This document shows, in pieces, positions 2,855-11,564 of a DNA stretch of 32,000 nucleotides. The notes under the pieces were generated by a model. The model saw only the letters and a program-made list of their open reading frames with translations. It had not been told where the DNA came from and did not search any database. Both the position numbers and the translations under genes were made by a program. Source of the DNA: Bifidobacterium longum subsp. longum JCM 1217 (GTDB lineage: Bacteria > Actinomycetota > Actinomycetes > Actinomycetales > Bifidobacteriaceae); NCBI RefSeq assembly GCF_000196555.1, contig NC_015067.1, positions 1,080,001 to 1,112,000 of the forward strand. Direction: 5' to 3'. Within the stretch, counting starts at the first letter, position 1. Each line of letters begins with the position of its first letter.

Positions 2855-5653
2855 TCAGGACGCCTCCCCCGTGAGCCGCGCGTACCCGTCGAACAGGACC
2901 TTCAGGCGCGTATCGTCATCGTCCTTCAGCCATTTCCCCGCGCCGAACGCCACGTCCGCGATCTTGTCCAATTCCCGGTGGGCGGCGCGTAGGTCGGTCG
3001 GCATGTAGTCGGGATCGTACAGGTCTGCCAGGGACTGGCCGGGATGGTTGGCTCGAGCCACCAGCACGTTCCTGCCGGCCTCGATCAATGCGGCGCGGGT
3101 TTCATCGTCGAGGGCGGGCAGGGGCAGGTTGTTCCAAACCACCGTGTTGCTGAAACGGCAGCGTGATTCCAGTCGCCCTCCAATCGTCTGCTGCCATGTC
3201 ATGAACATGCGTGATTCGATGACGGCGAATGCGAGGCCATCCCGGTCGGGACTGGTGTACACCATGTCGCCGGCGATGATGTCCGGCGTGTACCAGTCGC
3301 AGGTCATGTATTCCCGATCCTCGCTGAACACCTTCGGGATCGCAAGATAGTTCATGGACGGCTGATGGTCGTCACGGAACAGCCAAGGTGTCGCACGATG
3401 CCTGTAGGCATCGCCCTTCATTGGAGCATTGCGACGGTATTCGGCGCATGCGTCGACACGCTTCTTCAGGAACGAGGATTTCCTCAGTTCCCCCGGCTCC
3501 GCGTCCCTGAGCCATAGGCACCAGCGGTCCGTGCCGTTGATGAGCTCGCGTCCCATGCGAAACGGCCGGACGAAGCGTGCGGCGATGGGATCGGCCATGG
3601 CCTTGGCATATTCCTCACGGTCGGCGAGCAGCAGGTTGCCTCCATCCAGGGGCATGGAACCGGAATCGGTGACATCGAGAAGAGGCGAGACCGGTCCCGT
3701 CTTCTGGCTTCGTTTGCCTACGTACAGGTCGGGGCCGTCTATGAGATACCCGTTGATGTTGTCCACGGTGCGGGCGGTCGGTTCCCCATTGATGTCCGCG
3801 TATTCGAACAGTACGGGCGCGGGCTTCGCTTTCCTGTCCAGGCCGATGATGACGACGTGGACGTGCGCGTTGTCCGTGGACTGCGCGTCCCATGCGAACG
3901 TGCGGTGCGCGAAACGGATATGCCAGCCGTCCGCATGCAACGGTTTGAACAGGGGTTCCACGGGCTGCCCCTGGGTGATCGAATTGGTGGTGACGAATGC
4001 GAACGCCGCATCCGGTTTAGACAGGTAGGAGGCGGCCTTCCGGTACCATCCGGTCGCGTAGTCGAGATATCCGTCATACTGGCGGCCCCACACGGTCTTC
4101 AGATCATCGGTCTGACCGGCGGTCTTGGTGACGTGTCCGATGAACGGCGGGTTGCCCATCACATAGTCGCAGTGGTCGCCGGGTAATAGTTCGTTCCAGT
4201 CGAGGCGCAGGGCGTTGCCTTGTTGAATATGGGCCGTATCGGTGAACGGGAGCCGGGGCAGGCCGCTGATGGTCGACTCGGTGTCGTCCAATGCTTGCTG
4301 TTCCGCGATCCAGAGCGCGGTGCGGGCGACCGCGCAGGCGAACCCGTTGATTTCAATGCCGTGGAAGTGGCTGATGCTGACTTTGACGGGGTTGATGTCG
4401 TCGCCGAGGTCGAGGGCGAGTTGTCCGTCCTTGTCCAAATCGGCGAGGATCCGGTTCTCGATGCGACGCAGTTCCAGATAGGTTTCGGTCAGGAAGTTGC
4501 CGGAACCGCAGGCGGGGTCGAGGAACCGGAGGCCGGCTATCTTGTCGTGGAGTTTGTTGAGCGCGTTGGTGCGGGAACCGCCTGCGACCGGCCTGGCCTC
4601 CGCCCCCTCGAGTTCGGCTTTCAAACCGTCGAGGAACAACGGGTCGATGAGCCTGTGGATGTTCTTGACGGACGTGTAGTGCATGCCTCCCTTGCGCCGT
4701 TCGTCATGGCTGAGGGTTTCCTCCATGAGGGAACCGAAGATGACGGGGCTGATGCCGCTCCAGTCGAAGCCTTCGCTGATTTCCAGCAGGGCATCACGCA
4801 GCTCCCCGGTCAACGGGGGCACGTCGATCCGGTCGGCGAACAGGCCGCCGTCCACGTAGGGGAACGCTTTCAACGGTTCCGGCAGGTAACGACGCCGCTT
4901 CTCGATTGGTGTGTCCAACGCTTCGAACAGGTCGTACAGGTCTTCGCCCAGACGTTCGGGCGTGGATGCCGCCACATAGTCGCGGAGCGCGTCCGGCCGA
5001 AACAGGTTCGCGTCCTCCGCATACAGGCAGAACACGAGGCGTACGGTCAGCATCGCCAGCGCATCATGCTCCGCCGGATCATCGGGATGTTCGAAGCATT
5101 CCGCCAAAGAGTCATGGAGTCTGGCGACCCGTCGGCCGGCTTTGACGGACAGTTTCTCCTGTTGGACGACACGGGAGTGCTCGTGGGCGAACAGGCGGCC
5201 GATTTCGTTGATGTGCTCCGGCAGGCCGGCAAGCGTGAACTCCGATTGCGGGGTGCGGGCCAACGGGTCGGCTTCCAGATCGTAGAGGCGGAATGTTCCG
5301 AAATTGCAGGTGATGAGCACGGACGGGTGTTCCGATGGCGGCAGGCTGTCGGAATACCGTTTCGCCTGTTCCACCGGGGTGACCATGGTTCCCTGACGTG
5401 GTTCCGGCCTGTCCAAATCCACGCCGAGGCTCTTCTGTTCGACGAGCACACGGGCTTGGATCATGAGCGCGTCGATGAACCCGTCCAATGCGGTGCGCCG
5501 TTCGAACCAGAGCGTCTGCCTGTCGCTCGTGTTCGGGATGAGCAGCACCTTGTCCAACAGGTCACGCCAGTACTGTTGGGTCTCGGATTTCTCGTCGCCT
5601 CGTCCCGCCCATGATTCGGCGAACTTGGCCGCCCTGCTCTTCAGATCATCCAT
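2855..5653 (-). CDS. MmeI-family type IIL/IIG restriction-modification enzyme (fused endonuclease, N6-adenine methyltransferase and target-recognition domain), 932 aa
   Basis: N-terminal D...EXK nuclease motif (FIDALMIQARVLVEQKS). Motif I FLDPACGSGNFL. Motif IV VMGNPPFIGH. Size matches MmeI-type enzymes. Start set at ATG 5653 (MDDLKSRAAKF...); the Arg-rich 149 codons upstream in the ORF track overlap a better gene in another frame. Confidence 0.85.
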   Translation of the reverse strand: MDDLKSRAAKFAESWAGRGDEKSETQQYWRDLLDKVLLIPNTSDRQTLWFERRTALDGFIDALMIQARVLVEQKSLGVDLDRPEPRQGTMVTPVEQAKRYSDSLPPSEHPSVLITCNFGTFRLYDLEADPLARTPQSEFTLAGLPEHINEIGRLFAHEHSRVVQQEKLSVKAGRRVARLHDSLAECFEHPDDPAEHDALAMLTVRLVFCLYAEDANLFRPDALRDYVAASTPERLGEDLYDLFEALDTPIEKRRRYLPEPLKAFPYVDGGLFADRIDVPPLTGELRDALLEISEGFDWSGISPVIFGSLMEETLSHDERRKGGMHYTSVKNIHRLIDPLFLDGLKAELEGAEARPVAGGSRTNALNKLHDKIAGLRFLDPACGSGNFLTETYLELRRIENRILADLDKDGQLALDLGDDINPVKVSISHFHGIEINGFACAVARTALWIAEQQALDDTESTISGLPRLPFTDTAHIQQGNALRLDWNELLPGDHCDYVMGNPPFIGHVTKTAGQTDDLKTVWGRQYDGYLDYATGWYRKAASYLSKPDAAFAFVTTNSITQGQPVEPLFKPLHADGWHIRFAHRTFAWDAQSTDNAHVHVVIIGLDRKAKPAPVLFEYADINGEPTARTVDNINGYLIDGPDLYVGKRSQKTGPVSPLLDVTDSGSMPLDGGNLLLADREEYAKAMADPIAARFVRPFRMGRELINGTDRWCLWLRDAEPGELRKSSFLKKRVDACAEYRRNAPMKGDAYRHRATPWLFRDDHQPSMNYLAIPKVFSEDREYMTCDWYTPDIIAGDMVYTSPDRDGLAFAVIESRMFMTWQQTIGGRLESRCRFSNTVVWNNLPLPALDDETRAALIEAGRNVLVARANHPGQSLADLYDPDYMPTDLRAAHRELDKIADVAFGAGKWLKDDDDTRLKVLFDGYARLTGEAS

Positions 5654-6275
5654 GATTCCCAATGGTATCCGGTTTTCCGCATGCCGGTCGGATATCGACC
5701 ACATCATGCGGCGTGATCGTCCATAGGCAGGCTTGGATCCACCGGTCCGGCAGCCGTTTCGGATCCGCGATCGCGTTCGCCCTGTACTGGAGCCGTTTCT
5801 TTTCGGCCGGATCGTCCCAATGCTCGTCCAGCCACCGGTCGTATTCGGCGGGAGTCCACCTGTCGGCATCCAGCGGGGCGCACGGCCACCGGTTGATGAC
5901 GCAATGGTATTGGTCGAAATCCGTGCAAAGCACCCGGTTCTCATCGACCCGCAGATGCAGGAGCTCCAACCCGTCGTACTGGTGGCGGAAGCCCGGATAC
6001 CGTCGGTCGGGACGCGTATGCGCCCTGCCTTTCGAATCGACCCAGCGCGCCCACGCCCACAAGGGGGCCGCGTCCGGGTCCGGACGCGGCATGCCGGCAT
6101 GCTCCATTTCGCCCATCATCCACTCATAGGCGGGGCTGATGCCGTCCCACCAGTCCGCGTCGCCGTCGGCAATCGACCGTTCGCGGGCCGCCTTCCATGA
6201 GGGCGTGTACGAGCCGGAACGGTCGAACGCGGCCCTGACATCCGGCCACCGTTGGAACGAATACAGATCGATCAG
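5646..6275 (-). CDS. DUF3841-like protein (about 209 aa if initiated at CTG 6275; 157 aa if at ATG 6119)
   Basis: Pattern recalled for DUF3841: PLWAWARW...RPDRR...LHLRVDENRVLCTDFDQYHCVINRW...IQACLWTI. The frame stays open and protein-like for 52 codons upstream of ATG 6119. AGGAGG (6287-6282) + TTTTTT + CTG (6275-6273) follows directly after the stop of the preceding gene. 8-nt overlap with the RM gene start. Confidence 0.6.
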   Translation of the reverse strand: MIDLYSFQRWPDVRAAFDRSGSYTPSWKAARERSIADGDADWWDGISPAYEWMMGEMEHAGMPRPDPDAAPLWAWARWVDSKGRAHTRPDRRYPGFRHQYDGLELLHLRVDENRVLCTDFDQYHCVINRWPCAPLDADRWTPAEYDRWLDEHWDDPAEKKRLQYRANAIADPKRLPDRWIQACLWTITPHDVVDIRPACGKPDTIGNHG

Positions 6276-6291
6276 AAAAAACCTCCTTTAG

Positions 6292-6639
6292 TCAGCATTC
6301 CCATTTGACGCGGCGACGGTACAGGCGGGGATCGTCCCAATCGTCGTCCATGAGGCCGGTATCCGCCTCGCGCACGGCGAGACGGCAACGATCGCGAACC
6401 GTATGGCGGCCCACGTAATCCGGATACCGGTCATCCTCGTAGTCATGCCAGCTGTGCCAGCGCCGGCCGGATGGGATGTGCGCCTTCCGGCTCTGCGAAT
6501 ACGCATATGCGGTCACGTCGCCTTCAAGGGTCGGCGGTTCGGTCGGGTGCATCCAGTTGTGTCGCAGGTACGCGTACCCGTGCTCCAGCGCCTCGCGTTC
6601 GAGCACACGGTACGGCTTGTCCTTGAACGTTCGGGACAT
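6292..6639 (-). CDS. hypothetical protein (115 aa), first gene of the RM operon
   Basis: ATG 6639 preceded by GGAAGGAAAAAACGA. Trp/Asp/Arg-rich but non-repetitive sequence. Its stop lies 16 nt before the DUF3841-like start. Confidence 0.6.
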   Translation of the reverse strand: MSRTFKDKPYRVLEREALEHGYAYLRHNWMHPTEPPTLEGDVTAYAYSQSRKAHIPSGRRWHSWHDYEDDRYPDYVGRHTVRDRCRLAVREADTGLMDDDWDDPRLYRRRVKWEC

Positions 6640-6770
6640 TCGTTTTTTCCTTCCATTAGGTTTGTTCGCCTAGTGGAAGTCGTGAGAGAGCAGCATCGCT
6701 TTTCCTTTCCGATGGCCAACTATACAAAGAACAAACGAATAGTCTTTGCTGTTATTGCGTATCCAATGTA

Positions 6771-6800
6771 TTGATATTGTACGTCAAGTTGACGTACAAT
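6771..6800 (+). promoter_or_regulatory. promoter plus palindromic operator of the DUF1778/GNAT TA operon; likely leaderless
   Basis: TTGATA (6771-6776), 18-nt spacer, TACAAT (6795-6800), with ATG at 6808 only 7 nt after the -10. A perfect inverted repeat ATTGTACGTCAA-G-TTGACGTACAAT (6776-6800) spans the spacer and the -10. Confidence 0.55.
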
Positions 6801-6807
6801 ACACGGT

Positions 6808-7086
6808 ATGACAAGCACTATTACGGAACCGGCACGCAGCTCACGCCTCAACATGCGCCTCACGCCAGAACAGCGCCAAACCATAGATATAGCGGCCTCT
6901 CTCAAAGGCTCCTCCATAACACAATGGGCCATCGACCATCTCGTCACCGACGCGCGCCGGGATATCGAAGAGGAGACCGTCACCCGTCTGCCCTCCAAGG
7001 CATTCGACGAATTTCTCAAGGCGCTTGACAGACCCATGCCGAAGGCCGCGAAGGATCTCATCGAAATGGAACCCGACTGGATATGA
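6808..7086 (+). CDS. DUF1778 (TacA/AtaR-type, RHH) antitoxin
   Basis: 92 aa. RLNMRLTPEQRQTIDIAASLKGSSITQWAIDHL is the characteristic DUF1778 N-terminus. ATGA overlap with the GNAT gene. Confidence 0.9.
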   Translation: MTSTITEPARSSRLNMRLTPEQRQTIDIAASLKGSSITQWAIDHLVTDARRDIEEETVTRLPSKAFDEFLKALDRPMPKAAKDLIEMEPDWI

Positions 7087-7574
7087 GATTCACCACACCA
7101 CGGCGCATAGAGTCCTCCGACATGCTCGATGGCTTTGACTGCGGCATTACGCCCATTGATGAATGGCTGTCCACGAGATCCCGTTCTGCCGAAAAACAGG
7201 GAACGGCCGTCGCGTACGTCACCTACGCCGAATCAGGGGAACTCGCCGGATTCTACTCTCTCAGCGCACACGCGATGGAACGCTCCAATATCGCCGGCGG
7301 ATGGCTACAGAGGAACGTTCCCGAGCGAGTGCCCATGATACTGCTCGGCATGCTCGGCGTGGACAGACGTTTCCAAGGCGAAGGCCTCGGCAGGAAACTG
7401 TTGCACGATGCGGTCATACGTTCCTTGAACATCAGCTCCGAACTCGGGGCGAGGGCCCTCATAGTGGATCCCGTGGATTCAGCCGCAGCTAGATTCTACG
7501 AGAACAACGGCTTCCAGCACATTCCGGAATCAGAACGAATGTTCCTCAAACTCGCGGGCAAGCATCTCGTCTAG
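7083..7574 (+). CDS. GNAT-family acetyltransferase toxin (TacT/AtaT-type)
   Basis: 163 aa. FDCGITPIDEWL near the N-terminus. Acetyl-CoA motif RRFQGEGLGRKLL. C-terminal FYENNGF. Its TAG stop shares the palindrome CTAG (7571-7574) with the stop of the convergent minus-strand gene. Confidence 0.9.
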   Translation: MRFTTPRRIESSDMLDGFDCGITPIDEWLSTRSRSAEKQGTAVAYVTYAESGELAGFYSLSAHAMERSNIAGGWLQRNVPERVPMILLGMLGVDRRFQGEGLGRKLLHDAVIRSLNISSELGARALIVDPVDSAAARFYENNGFQHIPESERMFLKLAGKHLV

Positions 7575-8119
7575 CATTCTTGGCTTCCTCCATCCAGCAG
7601 ATCGCACAGCACCCACAGGGCGAATCGGGCGCCGTTCAGCGCATCCTCGGGAAGGCCGCACGGATATGAGGCCTCGACCCCCGCATGCACGTTCCCGTCC
7701 GCATCCACGCCATCCAGCACGGTGACGGCCAGGGTCAGGCATCGCAATCCGCGTTCGGGCGTCGCGTCCCCGCGGACGAGCAGCCAGACTGGCGGCATCG
7801 CCATCGGCTTGCCGGGATCGAACGAACGCGCCTCGTCGGCGACGATGCCCGGTCCGAACGGTTCCCGCAGTTCCAGCCCGTACGTGATGTTCCCGGCACG
7901 ATATTCGAGCTTGATGCGGGCCGTCGTGCCGGACGGTTCGGATGTTTCGGATTCGACGGCGTACAGCCGGTAGCGGATGGAATCAAGCATTATCCCCATG
8001 GTAGTCCGGGTGCGCGGTTCCTGTTCTCGTGGGGGCCGCCGCGTGCCGTCCGCGTTGAACTGGGCGAGCTGCCCGATCGCATTGCCCGTGTTCTGCAACG
8101 CGCCATTGAGTAGACGCAC
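7571..8119 (-). CDS. hypothetical protein; probably the downstream part of a gene split at a G6 tract (see findings)
   Basis: GTG-initiated ORF of 182 aa with internal ATG alternatives at 7999 and 7990. An upstream ORF (8225-7983) with a good RBS shares the motif NAIGQL and would fuse to this frame on loss of one G at 8125-8130. Confidence 0.5.
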   Translation of the reverse strand: MRLLNGALQNTGNAIGQLAQFNADGTRRPPREQEPRTRTTMGIMLDSIRYRLYAVESETSEPSGTTARIKLEYRAGNITYGLELREPFGPGIVADEARSFDPGKPMAMPPVWLLVRGDATPERGLRCLTLAVTVLDGVDADGNVHAGVEASYPCGLPEDALNGARFALWVLCDLLDGGSQEC

Positions 8120-8265
8120 ACGCTCCCCCCATATCGTTGGTCTCCAACGCGAGACGCAGCTGGCCGATGGCCGCGTTCACCTGATTGCGGTACGTGTAGT
8201 TATTGTTCTCGGATGGCGCCGTCATGCCATCCGCCTTCCTTTCGTCCTTAGAACTGATATGCGTT

Positions 8266-8817
8266 TCAGCGAATCAGCTCCAGAAGCCCTCGGTTCTCGT
8301 TCCTGCCGAACCGGTGCAGTCTTGAATATTCCTTGAGCGCGTGTTCGAGCCGGCCGGGCTCGGCCCAGTATCGTTCCAGCCATGCGCGGCTTTTCACCTG
8401 CTTCATGCCCAGTTCTCTTTTGCAATAGTCGGAGGGCTTCAGCCGTGTGGAGCCGTTCGTGTATTTGCCGTACATGCCCTCGTTGATGATGACCAGCATT
8501 TCGATTTCGGGATGGGTTCGCAGGTTCACGACCTCGGCCGCATGTTCGTACCCTCGAGGTATGCGCAGTACATCCGAGTCCGAATCAACTATTCGGACGA
8601 TGAGCAATGGATGTTCGCCGTATGACATGTTGAGGAACCGGTCGAGCATCTGTTTTGATTCCTTGCGCGTGAAGTACCATGTTCCGCGCAGCTGGTTGGG
8701 CACGATAAAATCGGCCGGTATTGTCAGTTCCCCTCGTTCGAGGAGGGTCGTGAGTATGTACTGTTCGGCCACGCCCTCGCAGACGAACAGCACATACTGG
8801 CCTTCCGCGTTAAGCAT
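8266..8817 (-). CDS. Toprim-like protein (RloB/DUF4276/OLD-nuclease-like), partner of the upstream ATPase
   Basis: The N-terminal YVLFVCEGVAEQYIL contains the conserved Toprim Glu in a CEG context, as in RloB. IVDSDSD is a DxD motif about 70 residues later. ATG 8817 (GAAAGG 8 nt upstream) overlaps the ATPase TAA (8812-8810). Alternative ATG at 8835. Confidence 0.6.
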   Translation of the reverse strand: MLNAEGQYVLFVCEGVAEQYILTTLLERGELTIPADFIVPNQLRGTWYFTRKESKQMLDRFLNMSYGEHPLLIVRIVDSDSDVLRIPRGYEHAAEVVNLRTHPEIEMLVIINEGMYGKYTNGSTRLKPSDYCKRELGMKQVKSRAWLERYWAEPGRLEHALKEYSRLHRFGRNENRGLLELIR

Positions 8818-9991
8818 GCACGTACCTTTCCGCATAATCCTGGAGGGCGCGGACGGCCGCGTATGAGGGCGCGGTACCGGGCACCCGGTTGGCGAAGAAG
8901 GAGACGCTCTTCTTCAAATCGGTGCGGCCCAGGTATGCGCCCAGATTCCGGAGGGCGAAGCCTTTTCCATCGCGGACGGCGAACCATATCGAATCCTTGC
9001 GGGTGAAATGGTCCAGCAGCTCCGGATAGTGGGTGGAGAACAGGAGGGTGGCCCCGTGCGGGTTCGTGACCGGGGAGGCGAACAGGTCCATGATGGTGAA
9101 TACGAGCTGCTTGTTGATGCTGTTCTCCAGTTCGTCCACAATCAGATAGCCGCCCGCGCGCAGTGTCTCCAATGCTCGGCCGACCAGTGCGCCGCCTCTC
9201 AGGGTGCCGGATGAGACCATGTTGACCAGCGAGTTCGGGGTGACCTCCCGCTCCTTGCCCTCATTGCGGAATTTCAGATGGATTCCGTCCTTGTCGTAGT
9301 CGAGGCGTTCGATGCTGGCATCGAACAGCGTCACGACGGGGCGGGCCGGGCTGACGGTGAGCGTCGGGGACACCGGCAGCAGTTCGGTCGCGATGTCGGT
9401 GTCCTTGACGAAGGCCCCGCAAATACTCCGGTCGGGCGGCAGATACCGTTTCGCGTCGGCGGACAGTTCGCCCCGGACGCCGGGCCTGCCCACGTTGCGG
9501 GATGAGAGCACGGTCCACCGTTCCGGATCCAACGTGCCGTTCATGGCGGAGGCAAGCATTTTCTTGCTGAGCTTGCCATGGTGGATGCTCAGGGTCTCAC
9601 GGATGAACCTCAACGGCGTGCGACCCTCGCCTGTCCGCTCGAGCAGGCTGTCGATGAGATGGAAGCGACCGTCCTGTTCGAACAGCGCGCGCACCCCGAT
9701 CCGGTCGTCCATGGTGTCGTACAAAGGGAACAGGTCGGGGTTCAACGATCCCAGCGACATGCCGCCGGCGACGGCGAGGGCGAGTTCGGTGACCCTCAAC
9801 GCGGTGGTCTTGCCGGAGGCGTTGATGCCGGCGACGCCGATGGCCGTGTTGATGCTGATGTTGCGTGCGGCGCCGTCGAGCATGTGCGTGTATCCGGGTT
9901 CCCTTACGGCGTCGATGGCGTACAGGTCCATCCTGCATTCATGGTTTTCGTATAGGCGCAGGCCGCTGATGGCGTAGCTCAACAACCTCAT
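8810..9991 (-). CDS. ABC-type (AAA_21-like) ATPase
   Basis: Walker A GINASGKTT, Walker B LIVDELENS, H-loop-like FSTHYPELL. ATG 9991 preceded by AAGGGAGA. The 15 codons upstream in the ORF track lack an RBS. Confidence 0.85.
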   Translation of the reverse strand: MRLLSYAISGLRLYENHECRMDLYAIDAVREPGYTHMLDGAARNISINTAIGVAGINASGKTTALRVTELALAVAGGMSLGSLNPDLFPLYDTMDDRIGVRALFEQDGRFHLIDSLLERTGEGRTPLRFIRETLSIHHGKLSKKMLASAMNGTLDPERWTVLSSRNVGRPGVRGELSADAKRYLPPDRSICGAFVKDTDIATELLPVSPTLTVSPARPVVTLFDASIERLDYDKDGIHLKFRNEGKEREVTPNSLVNMVSSGTLRGGALVGRALETLRAGGYLIVDELENSINKQLVFTIMDLFASPVTNPHGATLLFSTHYPELLDHFTRKDSIWFAVRDGKGFALRNLGAYLGRTDLKKSVSFFANRVPGTAPSYAAVRALQDYAERYVHA

Positions 9992-10077
9992 GCTTTCTCC
10001 CTTGTAAACGTTTTTTCTGTATACATAGGCTATCACTGAATGGAGACCGTCGATACCCGGAAACCGTCAGAACGCCT

Positions 10078-10087
10078 CCCCCCCCCC
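10078..10087. repeat. homopolymer C10 (G10 on the minus strand)
   Basis: Ten consecutive C read directly. Lies 87-96 nt upstream of the ATPase start and 24 nt from the IS30 left inverted repeat. Confidence 0.9.
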
Positions 10088-10110
10088 TGACTCCCAGGCA
10101 GCCGGGCGGG

Positions 10111-11497
10111 TTCTAGTGATCGTTGCAACACCTGACCTACCGCAAGGAGGGTCAGGTGACCAGAAGCCACCGAAACGAAGACCGTGGCGGGGAACACCGT
10201 TGGACGTTCAACGGCGTCGAATATCCGACGAGGAAGCTGATGTGCGAGGCGAGACGCGCCGAGTACGTGCGCCTGCTGGACGAGGAAGGCATGAACTTCA
10301 CCCAGGCCGCGCACGCGGTCGGCGTCTCGAAACGCACCGGCAAGGCGTGGCGCAACGGCAGGACGCGCGCCACGGGAAGGAACGAGAAACCCCTGGTGGA
10401 CTGGTATCGTTCCACCATGGACAAACCCAAGACCCTCCATCCGCGCTACCTGAGCCAGGAGGAGCGCATCCAGATCGCGGACCGTCTGCGTCTGGGCGAT
10501 TCGATCCGCGCCATCGCCCGCCTGCTGGGCCGCGACCCCGGCACGGTCAGCCGCGAGGTCGAGCGCAACAGGAATCCCGAGTCCGGCGGTTACGAGCCTT
10601 ACCGCGCCCAGCAGAAGGCCGCGGACCGGCTCAAACGCCCCAAACCGCGCAAGGCGGCCGAGGGCACGCGACTGTGGGACGAGATCGCCGCCGGGTTGCG
10701 CAGGCATTGGAGCCCGGAGCAGATAGCCAACCGGCTGAGGCTGGACTTCCCGGATAATGGGGATATGCACGCGAGCGTCGAGACGATCTACCAGGCCATC
10801 TACCTGCAGGCCAGGGGCGAACTCAAGCAGGAGCTGAAACGCGCCATGAGGCAGGGGCGAACCGCCCGCAGACCCCAAGGCGGCCAAGGCCGCAAACCCC
10901 GTTTCCGCGAACCCATGGCCATGATCTCGGAGCGACCCCCGGAGATCGAGGACCGGGCGGTCCCGGGCCACTGGGAGGGCGATCTCATCACCGGCAGCCG
11001 CAACAAAAGCGCCATCGGCACGCTCGTCGAGCGCACCACCAGGTTCACGATCCTGCTGCACCTGCCCGACGGGCACGACGCCGAACACGTCCAGCAGGCC
11101 ATCATCGACAAGATGCAGCACCTGCCCAAACTCCTGCGCAACAGCCTGACCTGGGACCAGGGAGCGGAACTCGCCCTGCACAAACGGATCGGCGCCTCGC
11201 TGGACATGGCCGTCTACTTCTGCGACCCGCACTCCCCGTGGCAGCGCGGCACCAACGAGAACACCAACGGGCTCCTGCGCCAGTACTTCCCCAAAGGCAC
11301 CGACCTATCCGTCTACCCGGAGGACTACCTCGACGCGGTCGCCGAGGAACTCAACGACCGGCCACGCAAAACCCTCGGGTTCATGAAACCAAGCGAGAAG
11401 ATCATCGAACTGCTCGACGCCGCGTGATAACCTCAACAACCGACAACGTGACCATGGAAGGCCGCTCAAACCTCAGGTGTTGCAACCACCACTAGAA
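10111..11497 (+). mobile_element. IS30-family insertion sequence (about 1.39 kb)
   Basis: Terminal inverted repeats TTCTAGTGATCGTTGCAACACCTGA (10111-10135) and TCAGGTGTTGCAACCACCACTAGAA (11473-11497) match at 23 of 25 positions. They flank a single IS30-type transposase gene. No clear target-site duplication seen. Confidence 0.85.
10156..11427 (+). CDS. IS30-family DDE transposase
   Basis: N-terminal HTH region. HWEGDLI, TWDQGAE and PHSPWQRGTNENTNGLLRQYFPKG are IS30 hallmarks. GTG 10156 preceded by AAGGAGG (10144-10150). The ORF is open from 10123. Confidence 0.9.
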   Translation: MTRSHRNEDRGGEHRWTFNGVEYPTRKLMCEARRAEYVRLLDEEGMNFTQAAHAVGVSKRTGKAWRNGRTRATGRNEKPLVDWYRSTMDKPKTLHPRYLSQEERIQIADRLRLGDSIRAIARLLGRDPGTVSREVERNRNPESGGYEPYRAQQKAADRLKRPKPRKAAEGTRLWDEIAAGLRRHWSPEQIANRLRLDFPDNGDMHASVETIYQAIYLQARGELKQELKRAMRQGRTARRPQGGQGRKPRFREPMAMISERPPEIEDRAVPGHWEGDLITGSRNKSAIGTLVERTTRFTILLHLPDGHDAEHVQQAIIDKMQHLPKLLRNSLTWDQGAELALHKRIGASLDMAVYFCDPHSPWQRGTNENTNGLLRQYFPKGTDLSVYPEDYLDAVAEELNDRPRKTLGFMKPSEKIIELLDAA

Positions 11498-11564
11498 TCT
11501 GCCCCGGGCATGCCGCCCCGCGACGGGTCGGGCATGAACTGCTCCGGATTATCCCCGACCGCCG

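Follow-up and report, generated by a model that had tools for sequence, protein, structure and literature searches.

The window considered here is a stretch of 32,000 nucleotides (nt) from Bifidobacterium longum subsp. longum JCM 1217 (contig NC_015067.1, positions 1,080,001 to 1,112,000), which carries on its minus strand two overlapping genes encoding an ABC-type ATPase of 393 amino acids (aa) and a small partner protein of 183 aa. We favour, with reasonable though far from complete confidence, the view that this pair is a divergent module of the AbiL/RloAB type, in which the ABC ATPase would serve as a sensor or regulator and the partner as a minimal Toprim-like two-metal nuclease effector. 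The partner is probably a remote homologue of RloB/AbiLii, judging from conserved residues and marginal profile similarities, and, by analogy with related systems, the pair is probably anti-phage.

Modules combining an ATPase with a Toprim domain (OLD, Gabija, PARIS, AbiL, retron effectors) form a major class of bacterial immunity systems, of which AbiL/RloAB is the least understood. AbiL consists of AbiLi and AbiLii of Lactococcus, and RloA-RloB comes from type I restriction-modification loci of Campylobacter.

Organization of the gene pair

The list of open reading frames (ORFs) and direct reading of the sequence confirm that two minus-strand genes overlap, with the ATG at 8817 lying across the TAA at 8812–8810, as first described. 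The elements of this unit, in window coordinates, are:

8810–9991, minus strand: ATPase gene, ABC-type (AAA_21), AbiLi/RloA-like, 393 aa (ORF list and sequence reading)
8266–8817, minus strand: partner gene, 183 aa, putative Toprim-like (RloB/AbiLii-like) metal-dependent nuclease effector (ORF list and sequence reading)
8810–8817, minus strand: start/stop overlap of the two genes, 8 nt, ATGCTTAA (sequence reading)
9997–10003, minus strand: Shine-Dalgarno-like AAGGGAG, 5 nt before the ATPase ATG (sequence reading)
8825–8830, minus strand: Shine-Dalgarno-like GAAAGG, 7 nt before the partner ATG, within the 3' end of the ATPase gene (sequence reading)
8210–8233, no strand assigned: GC-rich hairpin with a 9-bp stem, 33 nt past the partner stop (terminator-like scan)

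The ATPase ORF extends from the ATG at 9991 to the TAA at 8812–8810 and the partner ORF from the ATG at 8817 to the TGA at 8266. Their 8-nt overlap suggests translational coupling, and an overlap, or a gap of no more than 25 nt, between the two genes recurs at related loci. The hairpin, which was flagged by the scan on the plus strand and has a palindromic stem, is likely to mark the end of the two-gene unit. A 408-aa ATPase starting at GTG-10036 was considered less likely, because the ATG at 9991 has a Shine-Dalgarno sequence and agrees with the annotated homologues.

The ATPase is of the AbiLi/RloA type

The ATPase matches Pfam AAA_21 (PF13304) above threshold (49 bits versus a cut-off of 27, 1.2e-12, residues 53–327), and the three motifs previously read in it (GINASGKTT, LIVDELENS and FSTHYPELL) are all found in the 393-aa protein. 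Walker A corresponds to G55–T63 (with K61), followed by a signature-like S260-x-G-T263, Walker B (D286/E287) and the H-loop (H321); K61, D286/E287 and H321 occupy invariant columns in the alignment of ATPase relatives (alignment A4). The best PADLOC model is AbiLi (PDLC02335), which the protein matches at 2.4e-27 with 93.9 bits, versus 273.8 bits for a Klebsiella AbiLi on the same model. The match to AriA, the ATPase of PARIS (3.6e-13), covers only the C-terminal 100 residues.

The protein is 99.7% identical to WP_007058389.1, an 'AAA family ATPase' from a B. longum plasmid. In a tblastn search of plasmids, the nearest relatives were found on two megaplasmids and in L. salivarius, the latter being a member of the same family, and more distant ATPases were found on plasmids of Spirosoma, Emticicia, Vibrio, C. 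beijerinckii and Rhizobium and on small Klebsiella/E. coli plasmids. In every record of these distant ATPases that was inspected, the next gene downstream is labelled by PGAP as an 'RloB family/domain protein', and these RloB-type partners pass Pfam RloB (1e-10 to 1e-45) and PADLOC AbiLii. Because its next-nearest plasmid relatives carry RloB genes downstream, the window ATPase is taken to be a divergent member of the AbiLi/RloA type, with the 183-aa gene at the position of RloB. The AbiLi-like nature of the ATPase and the RloB genes beside its nearest annotated relatives point to AbiL/RloAB as the closest named system rather than PARIS, OLD or Gabija; AbiL-type systems, PARIS, class-1 OLD and Gabija had all been listed in the initial annotation as having an ATPase-Toprim core.

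A conserved and mobile cassette

Alignment A4 was scanned against one genome per species, yielding 79 loci, and the partner was sought next to the ATPase with a local hidden Markov model (HMM) of the partner, the 82 loci considered being reached through ATPase relatives. In 74 of these 82 loci, the partner lies immediately downstream of the ATPase, with an overlap or a gap of up to about 25 nt; the other eight comprise two loci cut by contig ends, two with decayed partner remnants and four with no partner. The recurrence of these two genes, side by side or overlapping, in so many loci of other genomes is far beyond chance, and they form a conserved cassette, co-inherited across phyla. The loci belong to Bifidobacterium, Coriobacteriia (Collinsella, Adlercreutzia, Gordonibacter, Atopobiaceae), many Bacillota (Lachnospiraceae, Butyrivibrio, Erysipelotrichaceae, Oscillospiraceae and others), Anaerovibrio and other taxa. 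The genes are also adjacent in most of 43 loci from IMG/VR. The earlier proposal of a two-gene module of the ATPase-plus-Toprim defence class is supported, the ATPase and its small partner being co-conserved.

No recurrent third gene was found among the immediate neighbours of 50 non-redundant loci, the flanks of which are variable, and no conserved helicase was found next to the related loci. The commonest neighbour families in these 50 loci are restriction-related (ResIII three times, type I S subunit three times, PLDc twice), and housekeeping genes are also present.

A word-indexed search yielded about 21 close relatives of the partner. An exhaustive profile search retrieved 617 representative proteins with E<=1e-3, including 336 with E<=1e-10; their length is 165–210 aa in nearly all cases, and the family comprises about 600 clusters at 50% identity, mostly from gut and rumen Actinomycetota and Bacillota. 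One member, of 180 aa, is encoded by the L. salivarius plasmid NZ_CP089851 (locus L088, 6058–6600; WP_095759350.1) and has been named 'N-6 DNA methylase' by PGAP. It matches the partner-family HMM at 7e-53 and no methylase domain was found in it; the name is probably a misannotation.

The IMG/VR loci L095–L105 are Bifidobacterium megaplasmid contigs of up to 187 kb that IMG/VR classes as viral. About 25 further 'viral' contigs (10–60 kb) carry the pair, with ATPases 28–42% identical to that of the window, and the cassette therefore also travels on prophage-like elements. The module resides on plasmids, on prophage-like elements and in variable islands of chromosomes.

This distribution bears on the idea that the pair might be a housekeeping DNA-repair couple analogous to RecF (an ABC ATPase) and RecR (a Toprim protein), which have the same domain pairing in outline. 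Neither RecF nor RecR is matched in NCBIfam, occurrence is patchy and tied to mobile elements, with decaying copies, and the genes lie on a megaplasmid, with an ATPase closest to AbiLi. Such a role is highly improbable, and was rejected on the basis of the NCBIfam result and the distribution.

Conserved residues and predicted structure of the partner

In an alignment of 107 diverse members of the partner family, E14, E18, D78, E106 and K142 are invariant, and G15, T101, P103, E104 and I105 nearly so. The family motif around D78 is D-S-x-x-[DE]: D78 and S79 are both conserved, with either D or E at position 82. The corresponding RloB alignment has E20, E25, D81, E115 and K150 as invariant residues. 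In the OLD protein of Burkholderia pseudomallei (Bp), E400 and D455 (plus D457) are assigned to metal A and E404 and E508 (plus T506) to metal B, together with K562 (PMC6755086). The order and chemistry of these residues are common to the partner family, RloB and Bp OLD; E400, E404, D455, E508 and K562 are mirrored in the partner by E, E(+4), D, E and K, and the E-x3-E spacing is that of OLD. Both motifs initially read in the partner, VLFVCEGVAEQY (E14, E18) and IVDSDSD (D78), are present, with D78 lying 64 residues past E14 rather than about 70. They had been interpreted as Toprim Glu and DxD motifs; the form conserved in the family is D-S-x-x-[DE] and not DxD.

The AlphaFold2 model of the partner (predicted local distance difference test score, pLDDT, 88.6) is alpha/beta in its N-terminal half and helical in its C-terminal half, in the order b1(9–13)-a-b2-a-b3(71–77)-b4(94–100), then helices. 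E14 is placed directly after b1 and D78 directly after b3; the next helix has E104/E106 at its start. A genuine RloB protein modelled as a control (pLDDT 91.1) displays the same order, with one extra helix, missing from the partner, between b3 and b4. The partner had been described as unusually short for a Toprim protein; RloB-family proteins encountered here are 179–245 aa long, so its length is typical.

Remote similarity to RloB and other Toprim families

The window partner has no match in Pfam, NCBIfam or PADLOC (the last searched to E<=0.1), and the family consensus sequences have none in Pfam or PADLOC. A PHROGs scan of the 107 members revealed no recurrent or annotated family, a tblastn search of GenBank phages with the partner gave no match, and hhalign found no match to the single sequence of P2 Old. 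The PARIS effector, DUF4435/AriB, was matched by neither the window partner nor the family members in Pfam and PADLOC.

The recurrent sub-threshold matches of the 107 members go only to Toprim-type families. PADLOC AbiLii matches two of them (best 9.1e-5, compared with 4e-8 to 3e-32 for control RloB proteins), Pfam OLD-like_TOPRIM six (best 0.013) and DUF4276 one; RloB is not among the Pfam families listed for the 107. When compared with Pfam RloB, the L. salivarius member scored 16.4 bits (E 0.011), in register across the Asp-to-Glu region. Alignment of the partner family with RloB by hhalign gave P-values of 0.033 at full length and 0.015 when restricted to the N-terminal cores, CEG, D and (P/C)xE being aligned, and P was 0.007 against nine short 'RloB-domain' proteins (from Vibrio, Photobacterium and seven metagenome loci). 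Overall, the hhalign P-values were 0.007–0.033 (including 0.016), with the motifs mostly in register. The family HMM scored at least 6.0 bits on four of the nine short proteins, with a best score of 9.7 bits; among 4500 shuffles serving as the null, scores of at least 6.0 bits occurred at 0.2% and of at least 9.7 bits at 0.04%. The four motifs lie together in a single aligned domain, among them VDSD and SDYCKRE in the protein from locus L144.

The short RloB-domain proteins, such as WP_064369880.1 of Vibrio alginolyticus pMBL287 (179 aa; PADLOC AbiLii model PDLC02338), are of the size of the partner and likewise lie downstream of an AAA_21 ATPase. They share with it the EGxxE spacing of 4, a helix starting with P-x-x-E 28 residues past the Asp, and, farther along, the motif S/P..(Y)CK(R)..L, which in the L144 protein reads SDYCKRE, as in the window. 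The similarity is marginal, however, and these proteins pass Pfam RloB (39 bits) and AbiLii (4e-15), whereas the partner family does not. The signals of homology between the partner and RloB/Toprim proteins seen in these sequence comparisons are weak but consistent.

Weighing the nuclease interpretation

Several results weigh against an AbiL/RloAB-type module with a Toprim-like nuclease. The window partner does not reach the Pfam RloB gathering threshold (PF13707, 31.5 bits) and is not recognized by PADLOC as AbiLii; the hhalign probabilities are only 1.6–5.6%, and compelling homology to any Toprim family was not obtained. Across the partner family, DxD does not retain its canonical second Asp, and the partner model lacks helix a3 of the Toprim fold. 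Foldseek found no match to the partner model below E 0.25 in the PDB and nothing below E 0.02 in the PDB and BFVD together, BFVD yielding no useful match, and searches of PDB sequences with the family profile returned only noise. The literature search found no paper in which the partner family was tested for phage resistance, an IS30 insertion lies 117 bp ahead of the ATPase start, and the module may often be inactive, because many natural copies have a C-terminally replaced partner.

The structural negatives are less informative than they may seem. The C-terminal regions of OLD proteins 6njv and 6njx rank sixth and ninth in the PDB search, at non-significant values (E 0.43–0.49, TM-score about 0.3, 0.28 for 6njv), and the RloB control model fared just as poorly, with 6nk8 at rank 36 (E 0.083). 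As a model of a genuine RloB also fails in Foldseek, the negative fold search of the partner says little; similarly, the profile search of PDB sequences cannot discriminate, because a genuine RloB profile finds nothing there either. The Toprim fold originally proposed for the partner stays putative: Foldseek and hhalign are not significant, and its support comes from the parallels in motifs and secondary structure, the sub-threshold matches and the modest HMM signal.

The absence of a significant fold or profile match, the unconserved DxD and the missing a3 helix would also be expected if the partner were neither a nuclease nor a Toprim protein, and instead an unrelated small alpha/beta adaptor or regulator, its resemblance to RloB being convergent or coincidental and the effector being the ATPase or an unlinked factor. 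We consider this unlikely, since each of the five invariant residues is acidic or basic, and together they follow the catalytic order of RloB and OLD, with spacings near those of RloB. Moreover, the gene sits exactly at the RloB position behind AbiLi-like ATPases, the recurrent sub-threshold matches point in a single direction, the targeted HMM outperforms shuffled sequences, and the failure of Foldseek extends to RloB itself.

A frequent allele of the partner, of 266 aa (cluster P0004, 477 member sequences; loci L095–L098, L100 and L102, partner ORF 6175–6975) has the last ~31 conserved residues after ...ERYWA swapped for unrelated sequence, and the partner is split in L099 and L105. The intact 183-aa allele is rarer, clusters P0001 and P0002 having 210 and 101 members, respectively.

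Relationship to known systems and proposed mechanism

AbiL/RloAB is the system that the pair resembles most closely. Both are two-gene operons in which the gene of an ABC/AAA_21 ATPase precedes that of a partner of about 180–245 aa, the genes often overlapping; in the window, they are adjacent and co-oriented, in the order found in the loci surveyed above, and the pair sometimes adjoins type I restriction-modification genes, as does RloAB. The partner and RloB have a common order of conserved residues with similar spacing. They differ in the E-to-E spacing (4 in the partner versus 5 in classical RloB), in the helix between b3 and b4, and in the presence of PEIE in the partner where RloB has CFExW; the window ATPase is also about 60 aa shorter than AbiLi. 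The pair should not be filed as plain AbiL, because the partner fails the tests for membership of AbiLii and RloB. The earlier statement that the module cannot be assigned to a named system by eye holds for the partner, for which Pfam, NCBIfam and PADLOC 2.0 give no clean assignment, and not for the module, which can be placed, with AbiL/RloAB nearest. A survey of defence systems in Bifidobacterium reported 'AbiL' calls in the genus, which may or may not include the partner family (bioRxiv 10.1101/2025.01.20.633837).

PARIS (the AriA ABC ATPase and the AriB DUF4435 Toprim tRNase) resembles the pair in having the ATPase and effector in separate genes, and a logic of sensing and sequestration is likely, by analogy, to be common to both. 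It differs in that AriB is larger, and the AriA match of the window ATPase is partial and far weaker than the AbiLi match. The OLD family (P2 Old, class 2 OLD, Gabija GajA) also combines an ABC ATPase with Toprim, but OLD and GajA are single fused polypeptides, whereas the pair consists of two ORFs, and the GajB or UvrD-like helicase partner is not present here.

Among the analogues, PARIS is the best understood, and it acts in the manner of a type II toxin-antitoxin system (PMC13064643); the pair could accordingly be seen as mainly a plasmid or mobile-element addiction module, in which the ATPase would neutralize a toxic nuclease and stabilize the megaplasmid rather than resist phages. Its megaplasmid location beside toxin-antitoxin modules and the frequency of decayed and truncated partner alleles are consistent with such a role. 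However, most related loci are on chromosomal or prophage-like contigs, with variable neighbours that often include restriction-modification genes, and AbiL, the nearest named relative, is defined by phage resistance. A predominantly addictive function appears rather improbable, and the two roles are not mutually exclusive.

For a divergent AbiL/RloAB-type module, a mechanism can be proposed by analogy with PARIS (AriA/AriB) and OLD/Gabija. The partner would be a two-metal nuclease, with E14 and D78 on metal A and E18 and E104/E106 on metal B, and K142 would stabilize the transition state, as in OLD nucleases. An oligomer of the ATPase would sense a phage-derived cue or keep the nuclease inactive; infection would release or activate the nuclease, which would cleave nucleic acid (DNA or tRNA) and thereby abort phage growth. 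It is conceivable, at slightly less than even probability in our estimation, that the partner represents an unrecognized, widespread family of minimal Toprim-like effectors, forming with the shortened AbiLi-like ATPase a distinct subtype missed by Pfam, NCBIfam and PADLOC, the trigger or target of which could differ from those of PARIS/OLD.

The branch to which the pair belongs is common in key gut commensals (bifidobacteria, Collinsella, Lachnospiraceae) and is carried by conjugative megaplasmids of the pMP7017 type. Existing annotation calls the genes no more than 'AAA family ATPase' and 'hypothetical protein', apart from the probably erroneous methylase label mentioned above, and the PADLOC models tested would not call the pair, because the partner has no AbiLii match. 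Its recognition would sharpen censuses of defence systems in gut bacteria and inform phage and plasmid engineering in Bifidobacterium, and the 183-aa partner would offer a minimal effector for mechanistic studies.

Genomic surroundings

By sequence identity, the window belongs to the pMP7017 family of Bifidobacterium megaplasmids. Positions 6000–10108 are 96.6% identical to B. longum NZ_CP084013, and the same pair is also present on B. breve pMP7017; PGAP labels the ATPase 'AAA family ATPase' and the partner 'hypothetical protein' in these reference plasmids. The pMP7017 transcriptome paper names restriction-modification, anti-restriction, toxin-antitoxin and CRISPR functions (PMC10832533), and no reference to an ATPase or an abortive-infection module came up when it was searched by terms. 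The other features around the pair are:

2855–~5700, minus strand: MmeI-type IIG restriction-modification enzyme, complete (all five MmeI Pfam domains; PADLOC REase_MTase_IIG E=0)
5646–6119, minus strand: small ORF preceding the MmeI-type enzyme (counterpart in reference plasmids annotated DUF3841)
6808–7086, plus strand: TacA-like (DUF1778) antitoxin (library scan)
7083–7574, plus strand: GNAT acetyltransferase toxin (library scan)
7571–8119, minus strand: 182-aa ORF separating the pair from the toxin-antitoxin module (unmatched in Pfam, NCBIfam and PADLOC)
10123–11427, plus strand: IS30 transposase ORF (library scan)
~10109–11504: ISBlo4-like IS30 element (99.7% identity to a B. longum plasmid copy)

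The pair indeed lies between a toxin-antitoxin module (6808–7574) and IS30 (10123–11427), as initially noted. The DUF1778 and GNAT genes overlap, are of the TacAT type and are convergent with the ATPase operon. The 182-aa ORF had been taken for a frameshift-prone third gene, but it is intact in the window and shows no sign of frameshifting. It is a 'hypothetical protein' in B. longum NZ_CP084013 and absent at that position in pMP7017; it was rejected as a part of the module because it matches no family, is not found behind the pair in pMP7017 or other genomes, and is separated from the pair by the hairpin.

An empty site for the IS30 element was found in IMG/VR contig L096. About 6.5 kb that precede the pair in pMP7017 (Lar, YafQ toxin-antitoxin, ATP-grasp) are missing from the window backbone. 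A poly-G tract at 10078–10087 (G10 on the minus strand) lies 87 nt upstream of the ATG at 9991; in B. longum NZ_CP084013, it falls inside the 3' end of an upstream ATP-grasp coding sequence. Its length varies (G6, G8, G9, G10) between otherwise near-identical megaplasmid copies, which could reflect phase variation or assembly error.

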